DNA from: Acidimicrobiia bacterium
GTDB lineage: Bacteria > Actinomycetota > Acidimicrobiia > Spongiisociales > UBA5794
Direction of reading: 5' to 3'
Assembly (NCBI GenBank): GCA_030431785.1
Contig: JAUIIM010000005.1
Location: 1 to 51,796 of the forward strand
DNA: 51,796 bases
The stretch's first letter is position 1. Each line of letters opens with the position of its first letter. The notes below the pieces were generated by a model. The model was not told the DNA's origin, made no database searches, and was given only the letters and a program-made list of their open reading frames with translations. Shown in pieces: positions 4,557 to 48,995 of the stretch. The position numbers and the translations under genes are program-made.

Positions 4557-4651
4557 CGGATCATCGGATAGTCGGATTGTCGGATTGTCGGCCAGCAGCC
4601 GGGAGCCAGTAGCCAGTAGCTTGCGCCTACACGCCTACACGCCTACACGCC
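4557..4651. repeat. Three abutting tandem arrays: CGGATTGT-type 8-mer x4, CCAGTAG-type 7-mer x4, ACGCCTAC 8-mer x3.5
   Basis: Read directly: cggatcat cggatagt cggattgt cggattgt / ccagcag ccgggag ccagtag ccagtag / gcgcctac acgcctac acgcctac acgcc. Confidence 0.9.
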
Positions 4652-16383: not shown

Positions 16384-17829
<1,446 letters not shown>

Positions 17830-17853
17830 TCAGCGATTTCGAACGGAGCGTCC

Positions 17854-18378
17854 GTGGACGACCAGATCGCCACCAGAAAAGCAACTCTCGATCCGGCTAC
17901 CGCACCGGTGGTGCTTGCCGTCTCCGAGACGCCACCCACCCGGACCGAAGCGCTCCACATCCACACGACGGCGTCAAACGAGTTCTGGGATGTCACCGAT
18001 GTCGTTCGGGCCGTTGCCAAGCGGTCGAAGGTCACACACGGTCAGGTGACCGTGTACACCCCGCACACGACGACCACGATCGTGATCAACGAATCGGAGA
18101 CGGGGTTCCTCAACGACTTTCGACGCACGATCGGCTCGCTCGTTCCCGAGGACACCTACTACGAGCACGACGATCACTCGGTGCGCACCGAGAATCTCCA
18201 GGAAGACGAGTTCATCAACGGTCACGCCCATGTGCGTCAGCTGTTGACGGGACAGCCGTCGGTCACGGTACCGATCGTCGATGGTGAGGTCCTTCTCGGT
18301 CAGTGGCAGCGAGTGCTGTTCGCCGAACTCGACCAGGCCCGCGAACGCCGCCTCTTCGTACACGCGCAAGGATCCTGA
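17854..18378 (+). CDS. yjbQ: Second YjbQ/UPF0047 family protein
   Basis: VYTPHTTTTIVINE, YEHDD, NGHAH and LLGQWQRVLFAELD motifs; GTG start after ggag. Confidence 0.85.
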   Translation: MDDQIATRKATLDPATAPVVLAVSETPPTRTEALHIHTTASNEFWDVTDVVRAVAKRSKVTHGQVTVYTPHTTTTIVINESETGFLNDFRRTIGSLVPEDTYYEHDDHSVRTENLQEDEFINGHAHVRQLLTGQPSVTVPIVDGEVLLGQWQRVLFAELDQARERRLFVHAQGS

Positions 18379-18398
18379 TCGCGGAGCGATCAGGATCC
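18370..18398 (+). terminator. Perfect 13-bp hairpin over the yjbQ stop
   Basis: ggatcctgatcgc-gga-gcgatcaggatcc; no U tract. Confidence 0.5.
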
Positions 18399-18443
18399 GA
18401 CGATCCGATATCCGATGGTCCGACTGTCCGACGGCGGTCGGTC
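18394..18443. repeat. TCCGAnnn 7/8-mer array (left arm of the stem enclosing the four-helix-bundle gene)
   Basis: tccgacga tccgata tccgatgg tccgactg tccgacgg; complementary to 18843-18889. Confidence 0.85.
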
Positions 18444-18481
18444 TACTTCCAAACGGCGTCCGGTCTTGGTATTGGTGCGCT

Positions 18482-18844
18482 ATGCACAGGTATCGCAGTC
18501 TTCGCGTTTGGTCCCACTCAGTTGATCTTGCCCGTCATGTCTATCGGATTGCCGATGCAGCACCGAAGCGGGAGCAGTTCGCGGCAGCCGGTCAGATGAG
18601 GAGGGCGGCGCTGTCGATCCCGTCGAACATCGCCGAGGGTTCGTCACGACGTACTGCTACCGAATTTCGACGATTCATCGATATCGCGATGGGATCTGCG
18701 TACGAGCTCGATACCCAGTTGGAGGTGCTGTCCGGTTCTGACTGGCTGCCTTCGTCAACAGCGATCGAGCTTCAATCATCCTTGTCCGATATCCGTTCAA
18801 TGCTCTATGGCTTGAAACGGTCCGCAGTTGATCAGACACAGTGA
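18482..18844 (+). CDS. Four helix bundle protein (23S rRNA IVP family / Avd-like fold)
   Basis: YRSLRVW, QMRRAALSIPSNIAEGSSR and EFRRFIDIAMGSAYELDTQL; 120 aa. Confidence 0.93.
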   Translation: MHRYRSLRVWSHSVDLARHVYRIADAAPKREQFAAAGQMRRAALSIPSNIAEGSSRRTATEFRRFIDIAMGSAYELDTQLEVLSGSDWLPSSTAIELQSSLSDIRSMLYGLKRSAVDQTQ

Positions 18845-18889
18845 TTGTTGCCGTTCCCGGACAGTCGGAGATCGGCTGATCGGAGATCG
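18843..18889. repeat. TCGGA-type array (right arm of the stem enclosing the four-helix-bundle gene)
   Basis: cggacagtcgga (18858-18869) is the exact reverse complement of tccgactgtccg (18419-18430), followed by gatcggctgatcggagatcg. Confidence 0.85.
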
Positions 18890-19035
18890 TTCTGATGTGA
18901 ACAATCGGTTCGCGGGCCGCAATTGGTGGCATGGGATACGAAATGGGGCTAGCGTGAAGGGTGCCCCTTCCTATCCCGGAGGGGGACCGTGGCTCAACGC
19001 CACGGATAAGCAAGGAAATAAAGAGAGGAAACAGC

Positions 19036-20133
19036 ATGCTGAAGAGACTTGCTGTGCTCTTTGCCGTACTCGCTCTCGTAGCTGCCGCTTGTGGCGGTTC
19101 GAGCGATGACACCACGACGACGACCGAAGGCGACTCCGGTCAGGAACCATCAGGGGAAACGCTTGCCGCCGTGCAAGACCGTGGAACCCTGGTTTGTGGT
19201 GTGTCAGGCAGTGCTGTCGGTTTCTCCGAAACCGACGCAGAGGGCAACACGACCGGGTTCGACGCAGACTTCTGCCGTGCAGTTGCTGCCGCCGTTCTCG
19301 GTGACGCTGAAGCTGTGGAGTTCCGCAACCTGACAGCCGCGGAGCGGTTCGAAGCGTTGAAGAACAATGAGATCGATGTTCTGTTCAGGAACACGACCTT
19401 TACGCAGAGCCGTGACACGGACATCGGTATGGACTTCGGTCCGACGACGTACTTCGACGGTCAGCAGCTCATGGGTAACCCTGAGACGCTTCCTGGTCTG
19501 ACGCCCGCCAGTGGCTTTGAAGCCATCGACGGCGCTGTGGTCTGCACGAACGCAGGTACCACGACCGAGAAGAACATCACCGAGGGTGCCGAGGTCGCTG
19601 GCGTGACGATCACGCTCCAGACCGTCGAGACGTTCCCAGAGGCGATGGAAGCCTTCAAGTCCGGAACCTGTGACCTCGTCACGACCGATGGTTCTGGTCT
19701 GTACGGCAACCGCGCTGCTGAGATCAACGCTGGTACGGAAGGCGCCGAGAACTGGGTGATCTTCCCGGAGGCACCGATCTCCAAGGAGCCACTCGGCCCG
19801 GCGTACCGTCAGAACGACTCAACGTGGGCTGACATCATCAACTGGACCGTGTACGCAACGTTCATCGCAGATGAGCAGGGTGTTACCTCGGCCAACATCG
19901 ATGACATGATGGATGCAACGCCTGAGCTTGCTCGCCTCTTCGGTGGCGAGGGCGAGTTGCAGACGGCCATGGGTCTGTCCTCGGACGCGTTCCTGAATGC
20001 CATCAAGGCAGTCGGGAACTACGGCGAGATCTACGAGCGGAACCTCACTGGTCCGCTGAACCTCGCACGTGAGGGCAGCTACAACATGCAGTGGCTCGAC
20101 GGTGGTCTGATCTACGCACCGCCGGCTCGCTAG
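19036..20133 (+). CDS. aapJ: Amino acid ABC transporter substrate-binding lipoprotein (AapJ/BztA-like)
   Basis: Lipobox VAAAC; GFDADFCRAVAAAV, RNTTFT.SRD, ISKEPLGP, VGNYGEIYERN and GGLIYAPP motifs. Confidence 0.9.
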   Translation: MLKRLAVLFAVLALVAAACGGSSDDTTTTTEGDSGQEPSGETLAAVQDRGTLVCGVSGSAVGFSETDAEGNTTGFDADFCRAVAAAVLGDAEAVEFRNLTAAERFEALKNNEIDVLFRNTTFTQSRDTDIGMDFGPTTYFDGQQLMGNPETLPGLTPASGFEAIDGAVVCTNAGTTTEKNITEGAEVAGVTITLQTVETFPEAMEAFKSGTCDLVTTDGSGLYGNRAAEINAGTEGAENWVIFPEAPISKEPLGPAYRQNDSTWADIINWTVYATFIADEQGVTSANIDDMMDATPELARLFGGEGELQTAMGLSSDAFLNAIKAVGNYGEIYERNLTGPLNLAREGSYNMQWLDGGLIYAPPAR

Positions 20134-20684: not shown

Positions 20685-20691
20685 ATCGATC

Positions 20692-20825
20692 GAAGATCTC
20701 CGATCTCCGATCCTCGATCTCGGATCTCTGAATCTCGACATCCCTCCAGTCGAAGCGCAGCCCGAGGTCGGACCGTCGGGTTTCGGACCGTCGGAGAATC
20801 GGACTATCGGAGATCGGACAGTCGG
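20692..20825. repeat. Inverted pair of arrays: GATCTCC 7-mer x6, then TCGGACnn 7/8-mer x7
   Basis: gatctcc gatctcc gatcctc gatctcg gatctct ... tcggaccg tcgggtt tcggaccg tcggagaa tcggacta tcggaga tcggacag; same layout as 17697-17764. Confidence 0.88.
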
Positions 20826-20934
20826 CGGATCGATCTCGATCGATTCGCTTGCGGTGGCACGCTGAATCTCAATCCTGTAGGGTGCCGCCAGCGCAGTCGC
20901 TCCATCGGCTGCCGCTGTGGAGAGGCTTGAAGGC

Positions 20935-31811: not shown

Positions 31812-32876
31812 ATGGCGGACAGTGAGACAGCGGACCGGAAGAGCTTGCTATCACGCGTCACGGGACGGGCGACCGATGTGGTCATGGATGCCGTCGACCC
31901 GGACGAAGTGCTCGATCGCATCGATGTCAACGCACTGTTGGACAGAGTTGATCCGAATGCCCTGCTCGACCGTGTCGATCCGAATAAGCTCCTCGATCGT
32001 GTCGACCCCAACGCACTGCTGGATCGCGTGGATCCGAACGCCCTGCTCGACCGTGTGGATGTCGACCGGCTGATGAACCGCGTCGACGTGGACGCTCTGC
32101 TCGATCGTGTGGATGTCGAGCGATTGGTCGACCGGGCTGGCATCGCCGACATCGTACGCGAAAGCACCGGAGCGTTGGCTGGTTCGGCTCTTGACGTGTT
32201 CCGTCGCCAGCTTGTCGCCCTTGATCAGATCGTCGGTCGCACCACCTTTCGCATGATCGGCCGTGACCCGAAGACCCGTCCGCAGTTCCCGGCGGACCTT
32301 GAGGTCCCGTCAGGCACGGATGAAGGAGGTCGCGGGCAGGTCACCGGACACTTCGCAGGTCCGATCACGCGACTCGTGGCGTTCGCCGCTGATGTCCTCG
32401 TCGTCTGGATGCTCATGATCCTGATCGGTGTCGCTGTCGCCTTCGTCGGGGGGCTCTTCGGCTATTCGCTGGATGAGCACGGTGCGGTCTACGGAACGCT
32501 TGCCCTGCTCACGTTCGGGACCCTCGTCCTCGTATACGGGACTGCCAGCTATGCCATCGCAGGCAAAACGGTTGGCATGAGCGTGTTGGGGCTTCGAGTA
32601 CTCGGTCATGACGGCGGTGGCCTGAACGGATGGGCGGCACTCCGTCGGACGTTCGTGCTCCCATTCTCGGTACTCGTCTTCGGGCTCGGGTGTATCGGGA
32701 TCATCACGAGTCCGGAGCGCCGGACCCTGCACGATGTCGCTGCGAACTCAGTGGTCGTCTACGACTGGGGTGATCGTCCCGCCGAGATGCCGGCCCCGAT
32801 CACGCAATGGATCGACCAGCACGGTGGAGTCGAGGACAGCCTCGTGGCAGGGACCGACGTCAGCGACGACGGCTGA
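31812..32876 (+). CDS. RDD family membrane protein with N-terminal 9-aa repeats
   Basis: AGPITRLVAFAAD, GKTVGMSVLGLRV and RRTLHDVAANSVVV motifs; (V/I)DPNALLDR repeats. Confidence 0.85.
   Translation: MADSETADRKSLLSRVTGRATDVVMDAVDPDEVLDRIDVNALLDRVDPNALLDRVDPNKLLDRVDPNALLDRVDPNALLDRVDVDRLMNRVDVDALLDRVDVERLVDRAGIADIVRESTGALAGSALDVFRRQLVALDQIVGRTTFRMIGRDPKTRPQFPADLEVPSGTDEGGRGQVTGHFAGPITRLVAFAADVLVVWMLMILIGVAVAFVGGLFGYSLDEHGAVYGTLALLTFGTLVLVYGTASYAIAGKTVGMSVLGLRVLGHDGGGLNGWAALRRTFVLPFSVLVFGLGCIGIITSPERRTLHDVAANSVVVYDWGDRPAEMPAPITQWIDQHGGVEDSLVAGTDVSDDG
31893..32135 (+). repeat. Coding 27-bp repeat x9 (VDPNALLDR)
   Basis: Nine 9-aa units with synonymous DNA divergence. Confidence 0.9.
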
Positions 32877-39166: not shown

Positions 39167-39262
39167 GATGAGGGGACAGAAGGGATGAAGGGATGAAGGG
39201 ACAAAGGGACAAAGGACAGACGACCGATGGCGAGTGTTCTGTGTTCTGTGATCCGTCTTCTG
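39167..39262. repeat. 8-mer GATGAAGG/GACAAAGG array (left inverted arm) plus 7-mer GTGTTCT array
   Basis: gatgaagg gatgaagg gacaaagg gacaaag ...; gtgttct gtgttct gtgatcc gtcttct. Confidence 0.88.
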
Positions 39263-40533: not shown

Positions 40534-40584
40534 TCTGATACCTGGTATCTGATACCTGGTATCTGGTATCTGGTATCTGGTATC
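40534..40584. repeat. 7-mer array TCTGGTA/TCTGATA x7
   Basis: tctgata cctggta tctgata cctggta tctggta tctggta tctggta; ends 3 nt from the SPFH stop. Confidence 0.92.
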
Positions 40585-47342: not shown

Positions 47343-47350
47343 GCTCGCAC

Positions 47351-47426
47351 AGATCACGGATCACGGATCACGGATCACGGATCACGGATCACGGGTCACG
47401 GATCACGGGTCACGGATCACGGATCA
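47351..47426. repeat. 7-mer array GGATCAC x11
   Basis: Read directly; two GGGTCAC variants and one AGATCAC. Confidence 0.97.
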
Positions 47427-47433
47427 GCATCGG

Positions 47434-47502
47434 TGGCTCATGGCTCATGGCTCATGGCTCATGGCTTATGGCTCATGGCTCATGGCCCATGGCTCATGGC
47501 TT
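47434..47502. repeat. 7-mer array TGGCTCA x9.8
   Basis: Read directly; variants TGGCTTA and TGGCCCA. Confidence 0.97.
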
Positions 47503-47503
47503 C

Positions 47504-47561
47504 GCTCCTAGGCAACCATGGCGAGGAGCTAGGAGCGAGGAGCCAGAAGCTCCTAGGCAAC
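47504..47561. repeat. nAGGAGC 7-mer array bracketed by 13-bp direct repeat GCTCCTAGGCAAC
   Basis: Copies at 47504-47516 and 47549-47561; between them gaggagc taggagc gaggagc cagaagc. Confidence 0.8.
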
Positions 47562-48604: not shown

Positions 48605-48995
48605 TCGATTCCGATCCCAGATTTCAGATGCCAGATTCCAGATCCCCGCGCCTATGCGCCTACGCGCCGTCACGCTCGGATCATGGATCATGGATCATGG
48701 ATCATCGATCCGGCGCAGCCAGGAGCCAGGAGCTAGGAGCCAGGAGCCAGGAGCGGCGCGCCTGTACGCCTACGCGCCTCCGCGCTCGTACGTCGGATGG
48801 TCAGATTGTCGGATTGTCGGACCGCGCCCTTCCACCCCTGGGAGGTAATCATGGGTCCGTGGTAGCCAGGAGCCAGGAGCCAGGAGCCAGGAGCTGGCAC
48901 TACGATCCAGGAACGAGGAGCGGCGTGCCTATGCGCCTCCACGCGAACGCGCCACCACGCCACCACGCCCCCTCGCCCCAGCGCCCATACGCCTC
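48605..48995. repeat. Mosaic of about 9 consecutive 7/8-mer tandem blocks
   Basis: CAGATnn x5, CGCGCCTA x3, GGATCAT x4, AGCCAGG x5, CGCGCCTn x3, GTCGGATT x4, AGCCAGG x4, a degenerate AGGA pair and nnCGCCnn x9. Confidence 0.92.

Follow-up and report, generated by a model that had tools for sequence, protein, structure and literature searches.

A four-helix-bundle gene enclosed by inverted heptamer/octamer repeat arrays: a candidate copy of a widespread IVS-type cassette outside rRNA genes

Our analysis has identified, at positions 18394-18892 of an Acidimicrobiia genome fragment, a gene of the four-helix-bundle family known from 23S rRNA intervening sequences (IVSs) that lies between two inverted arrays of short tandem repeats. 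Based on the evidence below, we estimate at roughly 0.55 the probability that this unit is a copy of an IVS-type cassette, self-contained and widespread, in which a self-promoted gene is bracketed by inverted arrays. The architecture, its conservation across phyla and the complementarity of the arms were observed directly, as were inversion, loss and replacement of the cassette at one orthologous site. Throughout, "the window" denotes the whole stretch of DNA that was analysed (51,796 nucleotides).

Results and discussion

The cassette is flanked by yjbQ and by an ABC-transporter substrate-binding gene, both recognized in profile searches. Its features and those of similar repeats nearby are as follows.

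17694-17766, no strand assigned: gene-less hairpin, CGATCTC x3.6, a 12-nt gap and GAGATCG x4.1
18370-18398, + strand: perfect 13-bp hairpin with a 3-nt loop, from the repeat search; terminator-like, without a T run
18394-18892: whole cassette, 499 nt; gene between two inverted arrays of 7-8-nt tandem repeats
18394-18433, + strand: 5' array (TRF period 8, 5.1 copies); core TCCGA plus 2-3 variable bases
18399-18443, + strand: 5' arm of the long stem, from RNAduplex pairing and seen in the MFE fold too
18467-18475, + strand: promoter-like extended -10 element, TG at 18467-18468 and hexamer TATTGG at 18470-18475, 6 nt before the ATG
18482-18844, + strand: four-helix-bundle gene (PF05635 / TIGR02436 by profile matches), 120 aa plus stop
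18843-18891, + strand: 3' arm of the long stem, beginning within the stop codon and containing the perfect 12-mer 18858-18869
18865-18889, + strand: 3' array (TRF period 7, 3.4 copies) of 7-8-nt units, core TCGGA
20687-20830, no strand assigned: second gene-less array pair, GATCTCC then TCGGAC-type, gap of about 30-55 nt

The perfect hairpin overlaps the yjbQ stop codon (18376-18378), and its 3' half merges into the first repeat unit. In relatives, reading of the sequences indicated a hairpin that likewise overlaps the yjbQ stop. The 5' array was also recovered by the repeat search as two direct-repeat families. The initial annotation had written the repeats as CCGAT and ATCGG units; they are indeed tandem repeats, but are better written with the core TCCGA, extended by variable bases, in the 5' arm and the core TCGGA in the 3' arm. 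The gene-less hairpin is intergenic, directly upstream of yjbQ, and its unit type is like that of the cassette; the second gene-less pair, with related units, lies two intergenic regions downstream of the cassette. A search of the 51.8-kb window against Rfam gave no family at or above its gathering score, and the cassette is therefore placed outside any rRNA gene. Along with the stem and the TIGR02436 and PF05635 matches, this bears out the original description of an IVS-like unit with an IVS-family gene outside rRNA. Each arm was covered by contigs from runs of three studies with zero differing letters (one contig per arm in X1 and X2, overlapping contigs in X3; the contigs of X10 leave a gap at 18572-18772, inside the ORF). 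Since the contigs of three studies agree over both arms, the cassette is not an artefact of this assembly.

The repeat search recovered the perfect 12-nt inverted pair that had been noted previously (18419-18430 with 18858-18869); by chance, about 1.5e-4 such 12-mers would be expected between a pair of 50-nt arms (2,500 position pairs / 4^12). Given the arms alone (18394-18446 and 18842-18892), RNAduplex formed 40 pairs, 35 Watson-Crick and 5 G.U, in agreement with the imperfect stem of about 40 bp first proposed, and the stem closes at the stop codon as had been stated (TGA at 18842-18844, 3' arm from 18843). The energy of the duplex 18399-18443 / 18843-18891 is -58.2 kcal/mol, a value reached by 0 of 500 shuffles of the downstream arm (mean -28.4 +/- 4.5 kcal/mol). 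The MFE fold of 18360-18930 also joins both flanks in a single long stem (z = -2.80, 0 of 100 shuffles as good), and, in the ensemble calculated for the complete element, each of the 12 core pairs forms with a probability of 0.80-0.99. The inner extension of the stem, which lies outside the arrays and holds most of the five G.U pairs, may be fortuitous. Like an IVS, the unit has terminal complementary sequences that form a long enclosing stem. The terminal inverted repeats of a transposon or MITE are present too, but as locus-specific arrays of short units, without a fixed terminal sequence.

The encoded protein matched TIGR02436 (E 1.4e-30, 105.7 bits against a cut-off of 24, residues 9-114) and PF05635 (E 7.6e-31, 106.9 bits against a cut-off of 33.8, residues 6-110). 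By sequence homology, a profile of six paralogs matched the PDB entries 2GSC (E 1.6e-35) and 2RLD (E 3.3e-11), and residues invariant among the paralogs are intact in the protein of 18482-18844. The 2GSC entry has five chains and is described as a homopentamer (PMC4990558). PF05635 is a large, widespread family with solved structures that is still described as functionally uncharacterised (PMC4990558). Profile searches and PADLOC, the latter with zero matches, revealed no recognisable nuclease, recombinase or transposase domain in the protein.

Avd, a component of diversity-generating retroelements (DGRs), shares with the IVS protein a homologous four-helix-bundle fold (PMC10053308). A role for the cassette in such an element was considered and rejected. 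The protein scored far below the cut-offs of the Avd models (17.4 bits against 80 for NF033474 and 18.1 bits against 40 for PF22296) and had a weak phrog_3206 match; in addition, no template/variable repeat pair was seen. PF00078 had 0 matches in the 95%-complete genome. Thus, unlike for the Avd of DGRs, no reverse transcriptase partner was found for this protein in its genome, and the cassette is not part of a DGR.

The position of the promoter-like element affects how the stem should be viewed. Since this element ends 6 nt before the ATG, transcription would start downstream of the 5' arm and yield a leaderless mRNA. The TA of a -10-like hexamer whose end lies 6-8 nt before the start codon was found at 26 of 33 loci of the order, and 20 of those have TGnTA as well. 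From these motifs we infer that the gene has its own promoter and a leaderless mRNA. A scan of 18250-19100 for E. coli-type consensus promoters and terminators returned nothing, and no T-run terminator. With a leaderless mRNA, the gene's own transcript would not include the 5' arm, so the RNA stem would form only in read-through RNA. Most of the read-through into the cassette may be stopped by the perfect hairpin that overlaps the yjbQ stop codon.

The paired layout is found well beyond this locus. Six of the six paralogs in the genome lie between an upstream 7-8-nt array and a roughly complementary downstream array, with complementarity clearly above background at five. The repeat unit changes from one paralog locus to the next; own upstream and own downstream flanks scored 22-46 against each other, whereas other pairings mostly scored 12-18. 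The paralog proteins are 34-50% identical, and the genome contains no near-identical copies. For loci in other bacteria, flank complementarity was controlled by comparing cognate with non-cognate pairing and by position shift. These controls replaced RNAduplex on 140-nt flanks with mononucleotide shuffles, which gave no discrimination, since shuffled sequences rich in purines and in pyrimidines still pair well. The non-cognate 95th percentile was exceeded at 23 of 34 loci in the order and at 61 of 76 cross-phylum loci (42 of 76 were above the 99th), and the percentile from flanks shifted by +/-750 nt (again the 95th) at 27 of 31 and 61 of 75 loci. The inverted arms sought around homologous genes are therefore present, and since the flanks pair above background at five of the six paralogs and at most order and cross-phylum loci, the refuting outcome named in the initial annotation (homologues lacking complementary flanks) was not encountered.

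At least one flanking array was detected at 101 of 114 loci. Period 7 accounts for 141 of the 166 flanking arrays and period 8 for 21, and copy numbers cluster around 4-5. The flanks contain 5.0 and 4.8 arrays of period 7/8 per kb versus 0.10 and 0.12 elsewhere in the same loci, a 40-50x enrichment. Each locus has unrelated neighbouring genes. Occurrence of the family is patchy: it was found in 20 of 61 relatives and in 30 of 301 genomes from the phylum, and some copies are on plasmids, including a Nostoc plasmid cassette with identical layout. Reading of the sequences also revealed terminator-like hairpins directly outside the arms at several loci.

A simple explanation would be coincidence, with slippage-generated heptamer arrays happening to flank a gene in opposite orientation. 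Arrays of period 7/8 number 566 in the genome, roughly one every 4.2 kb, and heptameric simple repeats are over-represented in some bacteria, for which polymerase slippage has been proposed (PMC4692102). However, the layout recurs at every paralog and at most of 110 further loci (34 in the order and 76 cross-phylum) in genomes that are not array-rich; inverted partners are typical around this gene family but not among dispersed arrays; and the perfect 12-mer would rarely arise by chance. We therefore regard coincidence as highly improbable.

Another view is that the stem is an RNA device, neither selfish nor mobile, that controls the gene's own expression or insulates its neighbours through processing, stabilisation or termination. 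Outside the actinobacteria, many loci have only 0-20 nt between the end of the 5' arm and the start codon, so that the gene's own mRNA would include both arms, with precisely the ORF enclosed. At the cross-phylum loci, purines prevail on the sense strand in the upstream arm (46 vs 9) and pyrimidines in the downstream arm (42 vs 12). This asymmetry is unpredicted by a purely double-stranded-DNA explanation and suggests that a constraint specific to one strand acts on RNA or on single strands. The terminator-like hairpins just beyond the arms and the presence of an RNase III gene in this genome fit as well. In this order, however, the ORF is separated from the 5' arm by the -10-like element, and the gene's own mRNA would carry only one arm. 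Selection for RNA pairing predicts a sense-strand excess of G.U over A.C among arm mismatches, but none was found (27 vs 32 in the order, 71 vs 108 cross-phylum), and transversions dominate. An RNA device also fits poorly with a unit that is present in both orientations at one site, dispensable in close relatives and set among unrelated neighbours everywhere. Based on these observations, we consider this view quite unlikely.

The site between yjbQ and the ABC-transporter gene could be read across in seven same-genus genomes; two others were uninformative (contig end; different neighbour). It is occupied in five and empty in two (G009 and G010). G000 and G002 carry the cassette in forward orientation; in G001, G005 and G006 it is inverted. 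Homology between the empty site of G009 and G005 resumes within the last array units, and no target-site duplication was visible when occupied and empty sites were compared. A putative remnant of the cassette promoter in the empty spacer of G010 was unsupported (local alignment score 19). The occupants of G000, G001, G005 and G006 form a single clade (support 84/76) with the G002 copy outside; since four of five occupants group together, the locus is largely vertically inherited. Across these genomes YjbQ is 83-89% identical, versus 37-54% for the cassette proteins. Contigs of four DNA runs (depth about 4-5) contained no joint, inversion, excision or indel variants.

The suggestion that this is a mobile unit holds only in part. 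The patchy family, the plasmid copies and the empty, inverted and unrelatedly occupied states of the yjbQ site agree with it, but the single clade of occupants, the divergence of the paralogs and the lack of a target-site duplication or transposase domain do not. Of the properties of a transposon or MITE, presence/absence polymorphism was seen, while a transposase or recombinase, target-site duplications and near-identical copies were not. We take inheritance in this genus to be mostly vertical, with occasional loss, replacement or inversion, and the cassette to be a selfish or semi-domesticated element.

Both arms are built of units from genome-wide array families, which comprise 119 canonical units among the 566 arrays; the family of the 3'-arm unit (canonical AGATCGG) includes 32. 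An inverted partner accompanies 63 of the 566, no more than in the control (65), and the idea that dispersed arrays are mostly gene-less hairpins was rejected on this basis. In the sampled relatives within the order, clean arrays are about 13x denser where the gene is present (19 relatives that carry it have 0.41 per 10 kb, 41 that lack it 0.031), a comparison among kin that are not independent. Twenty further carriers elsewhere in the phylum, a set of carriers only, have 0.35 per 10 kb. No array was detected in the sample for 9 of the 19 carriers in the order and 15 of the 20 elsewhere. Two adjacent heptamer positions hold 76% of within-array variation, compared with 62% expected, a concentration that could result from slippage copying one variant unit. 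The unit had also been suggested as a possible autonomous partner of the dispersed arrays. The shared unit families and the higher array density in carriers agree with this, although most arrays are unpaired; the density difference keeps a gene-array partnership alive.

These results bear on a third alternative, a DNA-level mobile element with protein-bound ends. Here the arrays would be subterminal inverted arrays of binding sites, as in some transposons, a putative pentameric protein would recognise the unit at about 4-5 units per arm, and the gene-less arrays, which number in the hundreds, would be non-autonomous relatives or landing pads. Movement would occur by host or trans-acting recombination, or by homologous exchange into existing arrays. 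Consistent with this are the arm units in genome-wide families, the gene-less hairpins of like unit type in neighbouring intergenic regions, the array density in carriers within and beyond the order, copy numbers of about 4-5 next to the five chains of 2GSC, the variation focused on two heptamer positions, the patchy family with plasmid copies, and the two orientations plus one unrelated occupant at the yjbQ site. Nevertheless, the protein is without a recognisable nuclease, recombinase or transposase domain, the copies within the genome are too divergent to be near-identical, no target-site duplication was seen, most dispersed arrays have no inverted partner, and many carriers had no array in the sample. 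In addition, the carriers are non-independent kin and slippage could explain the variant focus. We see such an element as possible but, on balance, unlikely.

A broader and still more doubtful proposal is that PF05635 cassettes act as autonomous elements within a pan-bacterial system by which heptamer/octamer arrays are seeded, spread or maintained. The pentamer would recognise the unit at about five per arm, and gene-less arrays would be derivatives or landing pads.

For the reading that we prefer, a self-contained IVS-type cassette, the following mechanism is proposed. At the DNA level the arms are mirror copies of each other and make up an inverted repeat of about 45 bp with an interruption; recombination between them would have flipped the cassette between related genomes. 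The two arms would change together, probably through conversion between them, and each array would be kept uniform while its unit drifts. In transcripts that run through the cassette, such as those coming from yjbQ, pairing of the arms would enclose the entire ORF in a stem of 40 bp. This read-through stem would have the architecture of ORF-bearing 23S rRNA IVSs and would be a substrate of the RNase III type, presumably cleaved. Several points weigh against this scheme: a length of 30-45 bp is small for arms that are to exchange efficiently by homology, the arm mismatches lack the G.U excess predicted under selection for RNA pairing, the purine/pyrimidine asymmetry is unexpected for a role in double-stranded DNA only, and the contigs of the four DNA runs contained neither an inversion nor an excision variant.

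Some known systems resemble the cassette. Correia elements of Neisseria are short, intergenic, bounded by inverted repeats and, once transcribed, substrates of RNase III; they are gene-less, with fixed terminal repeats and many near-identical copies. Thus, both are intergenic elements bounded by inverted repeats, but the cassette has a gene and locus-specific tandem arrays. The closest parallels are the ORF-bearing 23S IVSs of Coxiella burnetii and Leptospira, in which a PF05635 (S23p) ORF is looped by a stem of terminal inverted repeats. In C. burnetii the IVS contains the S23p ORF and a 28-bp terminal stem that RNase III cuts in vitro, with 3-4 tandem heptamers upstream of the ORF whose count varies between strains (PMC4990558). 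ORF-bearing 23S IVSs are regarded as selfish and horizontally acquired (PMC4990558). In contrast to these, the cassette described here is not in an rRNA gene, has its own promoter-like element and builds both arms from 7-8-nt units; RNase III cutting, established for the IVS stem, would be a prediction for the cassette.

Early work on cyanobacterial STRR sequences reportedly found heptameric tandem repeats to be over-represented in some bacterial genomes. Intergenic tandem heptamers have been described as heptameric SSRs in Xanthomonas (GGGAATC), Nostoc (GGGGA(C/T)T) and Beggiatoaceae (TAACTGA); they typically have about four units, vary in close relatives and sometimes occur as inverted pairs (PMC4692102, PMC4679880). 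No function or origin has been agreed on (PMC4692102). The arrays here are similar intergenic tandem heptamers, but form complementary pairs around one gene family. In the portions of PMC4679880 and PMC4692102 available to us, the IVS protein family is unmentioned and the repeats are presented without an associated gene. Searches of open full texts found no paper, other than the one with the Coxiella observation, in which heptamer or STRR repeats are linked to PF05635, TIGR02436, S23p or "four helix bundle protein", and none describing the association of PF05635 genes with complementary heptamer/octamer arrays.

Conclusion

The function of the IVS protein family and the origin of heptamer repeats are two old puzzles that may be one. 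If the link is true, rRNA IVSs would be merely the most visible habitat of a general cassette, and annotation pipelines could call the whole element instead of a lone "four helix bundle protein". The protein would also be open to simple tests, including binding to its own repeats, RNase III mapping and the dynamics of inversion and copy number. Were the array-seeding system to prove true, the IVS protein family would gain a function and the over-representation of heptamers in certain genomes would be explained.

The cassette and its stem

The element in the window is most likely a cassette of the kind known from intervening sequences (IVS) of 23S rRNA, here lying outside rRNA and made up of a gene, its own putative promoter and two inverted repeat-array arms. 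We hold this architecture, and its generality, with high confidence. The features concerned are as follows.

17533-18378: longest ORF of yjbQ (TIGR00149), upstream of the cassette gene
17694-17766: gene-less hairpin of the same unit type
18394-18433: upstream (5') array, period 8, 5.1 copies
18467-18468 (TG) and 18470-18475 (TATTGG): putative extended -10-like element, recognized by conserved motif and spacing, before the ATG at 18482
18482-18844, + strand: four-helix-bundle ORF, 120 aa, matching TIGR02436 and PF05635
18865-18889: downstream (3') array, period 7, 3.4 copies
19036: start of a family-3 solute-binding protein gene, downstream of the cassette gene
20687-20830: gene-less hairpin of the same unit type

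The 18482-18844 ORF matched TIGR02436, 'four helix bundle protein' (E 1.4e-30, 105.7 bits against a cut-off of 24), and PF05635, '23S rRNA-intervening sequence protein' (E 7.6e-31). When the six paralogs in the window's own genome (G000) were combined into a profile, it matched 2GSC, a Xanthomonas protein of solved structure (E 1.6e-35). Avd, the accessory protein of diversity-generating retroelements, was rejected as an identity for the product, its model matches falling far below the cut-offs, and no reverse transcriptase match was found in the 95%-complete G000 genome. The initial annotation had placed the gene outside any rRNA gene; this was borne out, since no Rfam family reaches its gathering score across the whole window. 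The longest yjbQ ORF encodes 281 aa, and the family match spans residues 141-280 only. Its true start is probably near 17953, which would make the hairpin at 17694-17766 intergenic.

A repeat search confirmed the perfect 12-nt inverted pair (18419-18430 with 18858-18869), and the long imperfect stem of about 40 bp proposed to surround the gene also stood. The arms at 18399-18443 and 18843-18891 form 40 bp (35 Watson-Crick, 5 G.U) at -58.2 kcal/mol, a value matched by none of 500 shuffles of the downstream arm (mean -28.4 +/- 4.5 kcal/mol). The same arm-arm stem is present in the minimum-free-energy fold of 18360-18930, with core-pair probabilities of 0.80-0.99 in the whole-element ensemble, and the 3' arm begins within the stop codon of the gene. 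Each arm is covered, with zero differing letters, by contigs from sequencing runs belonging to three studies (one contig per arm in X1 and X2, overlapping contigs in X3); X10 leaves 18572-18772, inside the ORF, uncovered. No alternative junctions at the cassette were found in the DNA contigs.

Flanking arrays as a trait of the gene family

Inverted arms, which the initial annotation had proposed to seek at the paralogs, flank all six TIGR02436 genes of G000 (2.375 Mb, 173 contigs). A period-7/8 array precedes each gene and a roughly complementary one follows it, the unit being specific to the locus. When upstream flanks were locally aligned with the reverse complement of downstream flanks, own pairs scored 22-46 and other pairings mostly 12-18, the higher non-own scores occurring where two loci have a common unit family.

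The family is patchy, occurring in 20 of 61 genomes (60 relatives plus G000) and in 8 of 10 within the genus. Across the order, 23 of 34 loci (one with a truncated flank, two with masked bases) outscored 95% of 1,089 non-cognate pairings. A scan of species-representative genomes yielded 80 loci from Bacteroidota, Acidobacteriota, Desulfobacterota, Verrucomicrobiota, Planctomycetota, Gemmatimonadota, Chloroflexota, Proteobacteria, candidate phyla and one archaeon. Four were left out because their flanks were too short for scoring; of the remaining 76, 61 scored higher than 95% of the non-cognate pairings and 42 higher than 99%. In a second control, with identical geometry moved by +/-750 nt, median scores were 17 and 16 (maxima 26 and 29) and the cognate median was 34; 27 of 31 and 61 of 75 loci lay above the 95th percentile of this control. 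Tandem Repeats Finder (TRF) placed arrays on both sides of 65 of the 114 loci, on one side of 36 and on neither side of 13; among the 166 arrays the period was 7 in 141 and 8 in 21. The flanks contain period-7/8 arrays at densities of 5.0 and 4.8 per kb, compared with 0.10 and 0.12 in the rest of the same loci. Complementary flanking arrays are thus a trait of the gene family rather than a local accident, and we consider coincidence very improbable.

Plasmid records matching the family are mostly cyanobacterial (17 of 20). A Nostoc edaphicum plasmid has a cassette with the same layout between two ribonucleotide-reductase genes, and a plasmid copy in Nostoc PCC 7120 has non-complementary arrays on both sides. 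The N. edaphicum cassette (L249, plasmid pNe_5, 300-795; arms AGGGAGT x7 and TCCCTAC x5) lies on the opposite strand to the reductase subunit genes, so an operon transcript would cross it in antisense. Among genomes of the window's phylum, some small ones (1.4-2.2 Mb; G151, G165, G227, G251, G338, G349) hold 5-11 family matches, some of them fragments or copies interrupted by in-frame stops, a pattern suggestive of copying in bursts and later decay.

The yjbQ site across the genus

The orthologous spacer between yjbQ (83-89% identical among same-genus genomes) and the ABC-transporter gene was compared across the genus. Directly after the yjbQ terminal hairpin, the cassette is forward in G000 and G002 and inverted in G001, G005 and G006. 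The empty sites sought in relatives were found: G010 has an unrelated 275-nt spacer with no arrays, and in G009, which lacks the cassette, homology to G005 resumes within the last units of the G005 array. The site is a contig edge in G003 and has a different neighbour in G007. The cassette proteins of G000, G001, G005 and G006 form one clade (ultrafast bootstrap 84, SH-aLRT 76) in which the others have 51-54% identity to the G000 protein; that of G002 falls outside it (37%). Read by eye, arm units within the clade are related and differ by 1-2 bases between genomes, both arms changing together. In G006 (L098), one array of mixed heptamers between the inverted cassette and the transporter gene runs to about 330 nt and the other arm has only about 6 units, so arms can grow very unequally.

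These states indicate mostly vertical descent with at least one inversion, two losses and one replacement. Recombination between inverted arms would invert exactly the enclosed segment, as seen.

Start signals and strand tests

Of 33 order loci, 26 have the TA of a -10-like hexamer ending 6-8 nt ahead of the start codon, and in 20 of these the TGnTA extension is present too. By eye, no Shine-Dalgarno-like sequence lies between this element and the ATG at 18482. Leaderless transcription is known in high-GC Gram-positive bacteria, and we infer that the cassette mRNA is leaderless, beginning downstream of the 5' arm. A promoter scan with an E. coli-type consensus found nothing, so this reading draws on the conserved motif and its spacing. 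Twelve of 33 order loci, including L003, L005, L009, L013, L018, L020, L027, L033 and L034, share a conserved GGGTTCC-like motif 37-38 nt ahead of the start codon, in the -35 position; it is unlike the usual consensus and is absent from the window's copy. By eye, several Bacteroidota loci have a TAnnTTTG-like motif between 5' arm and ORF. In other loci the 5' arm stops 0-20 nt short of the start codon, and both arms may there lie within the mRNA.

Aligned arms show G.U and A.C mismatches on the sense strand at 27 versus 32 in the order and 71 versus 108 across phyla, with transversions the largest class. The lack of a G.U excess and the commonness of transversions argue against long-term selection for pairing in sense RNA. 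Across phyla, purines predominate on the sense strand of the upstream array (46 loci versus 9) and pyrimidines on that of the downstream array (42 versus 12), which suggests some strand-specific constraint where arms may be transcribed with the gene; the order's loci show no such bias. A purely host-serving RNA device is, on our assessment, unlikely.

Dispersed arrays

TRF rows with at least 3 copies numbered 433 for period 7, 153 for period 8 and at most 69 for any other period. Merged, the period-7/8 arrays number 566, cover 20.8 kb and reduce to 119 canonical units, few families dominating; the family that includes the window's 3'-arm unit comprises 32 arrays. At a score of at least 24, 63 of the 566 had a complementary partner no further than 200 nt away, compared with 65 when another array's flanks were used, and most dispersed arrays are not hairpins. 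Intergenic clusters of different heptamer and octamer arrays, part of the 566 and mostly without an inverted partner, lie at 4564-4651, 39167-39262, 40534-40584, 47348-47551 (GATCACG x11, then GCTCATG x10, then AGGAGCT x4) and 48607-48986. A tandem repeat at 31893-32119 (period 27, about 6 copies, higher-order period 81 nt) looks like a coding repeat.

The main rival holds that the arrays are binding sites of the pentameric protein and that the cassette acts as autonomous partner to the dispersed arrays. Within the heptamer, variant bases cluster at two adjacent positions (76% against 62% expected; maximum of 200 simulations, 66%), a pattern that could also arise when slippage duplicates one variant unit. 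For each genome a sample of up to 20-60 kb, selected regardless of the gene, was searched for clean arrays (at least 3.5 copies, at least 80% matches).

Table. Clean arrays in sampled genomes
Group; genomes; arrays; bases; arrays per 10 kb; genomes with at least one
Relatives with the gene; 19; 26; 628,013; 0.41; 10
Relatives without the gene; 41; 4; 1,284,368; 0.031; 3
Carriers elsewhere in the phylum; 20; 12; 340,284; 0.35; 5

The gene-less group includes the unpublished G039 and G050, with zero arrays each (39 genomes and 1,259,338 bases without them), and the set from elsewhere in the phylum consists of carriers only. By the same criteria, G000 has 1.6 per 10 kb. With small samples and related genomes that are not independent, the gene-array association is a lead, not proof. 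We regard the binding-site explanation as possible but doubtful.

Relation to rRNA-borne IVS

Earlier publications already describe the protein family and its presence in rRNA IVS, the excision of the stem by RNase III, and the homology to Avd. As described in the Coxiella report (Warrier et al. 2016, PMC4990558), the 23S IVS measures 428 nt; its terminal stem, 28 bp long, is cut in vitro by RNase III and encloses the S23p ORF. A run of 3-4 tandem heptamers, their number strain-dependent, lies just upstream of the ORF and is treated by its authors as a local feature. The whole architecture, beyond the protein alone, is therefore common to the rRNA-borne element, whereas the window cassette lies outside rRNA. 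Heptameric simple repeats over-represented in Xanthomonas and Nostoc (PMC4692102), and TAACTGA repeats in Beggiatoaceae, cyanobacteria and Bacteroidetes (PMC4679880), are likewise in print, with no function assigned. In the openly available main texts searched, nothing but the Coxiella remark was found to join the family with heptamer repeats; an earlier description of the gene-array association may exist.

Taken together, we give a probability of roughly 0.55 to arms that are mirror copies, kept alike and now and then flipped at the DNA level, with an RNase III-type stem if transcribed across. Exchange between the arms would maintain their complementarity despite unit drift. G000 has an RNase III gene, and transcription across the whole cassette would produce such a stem, as in the rRNA-borne form.
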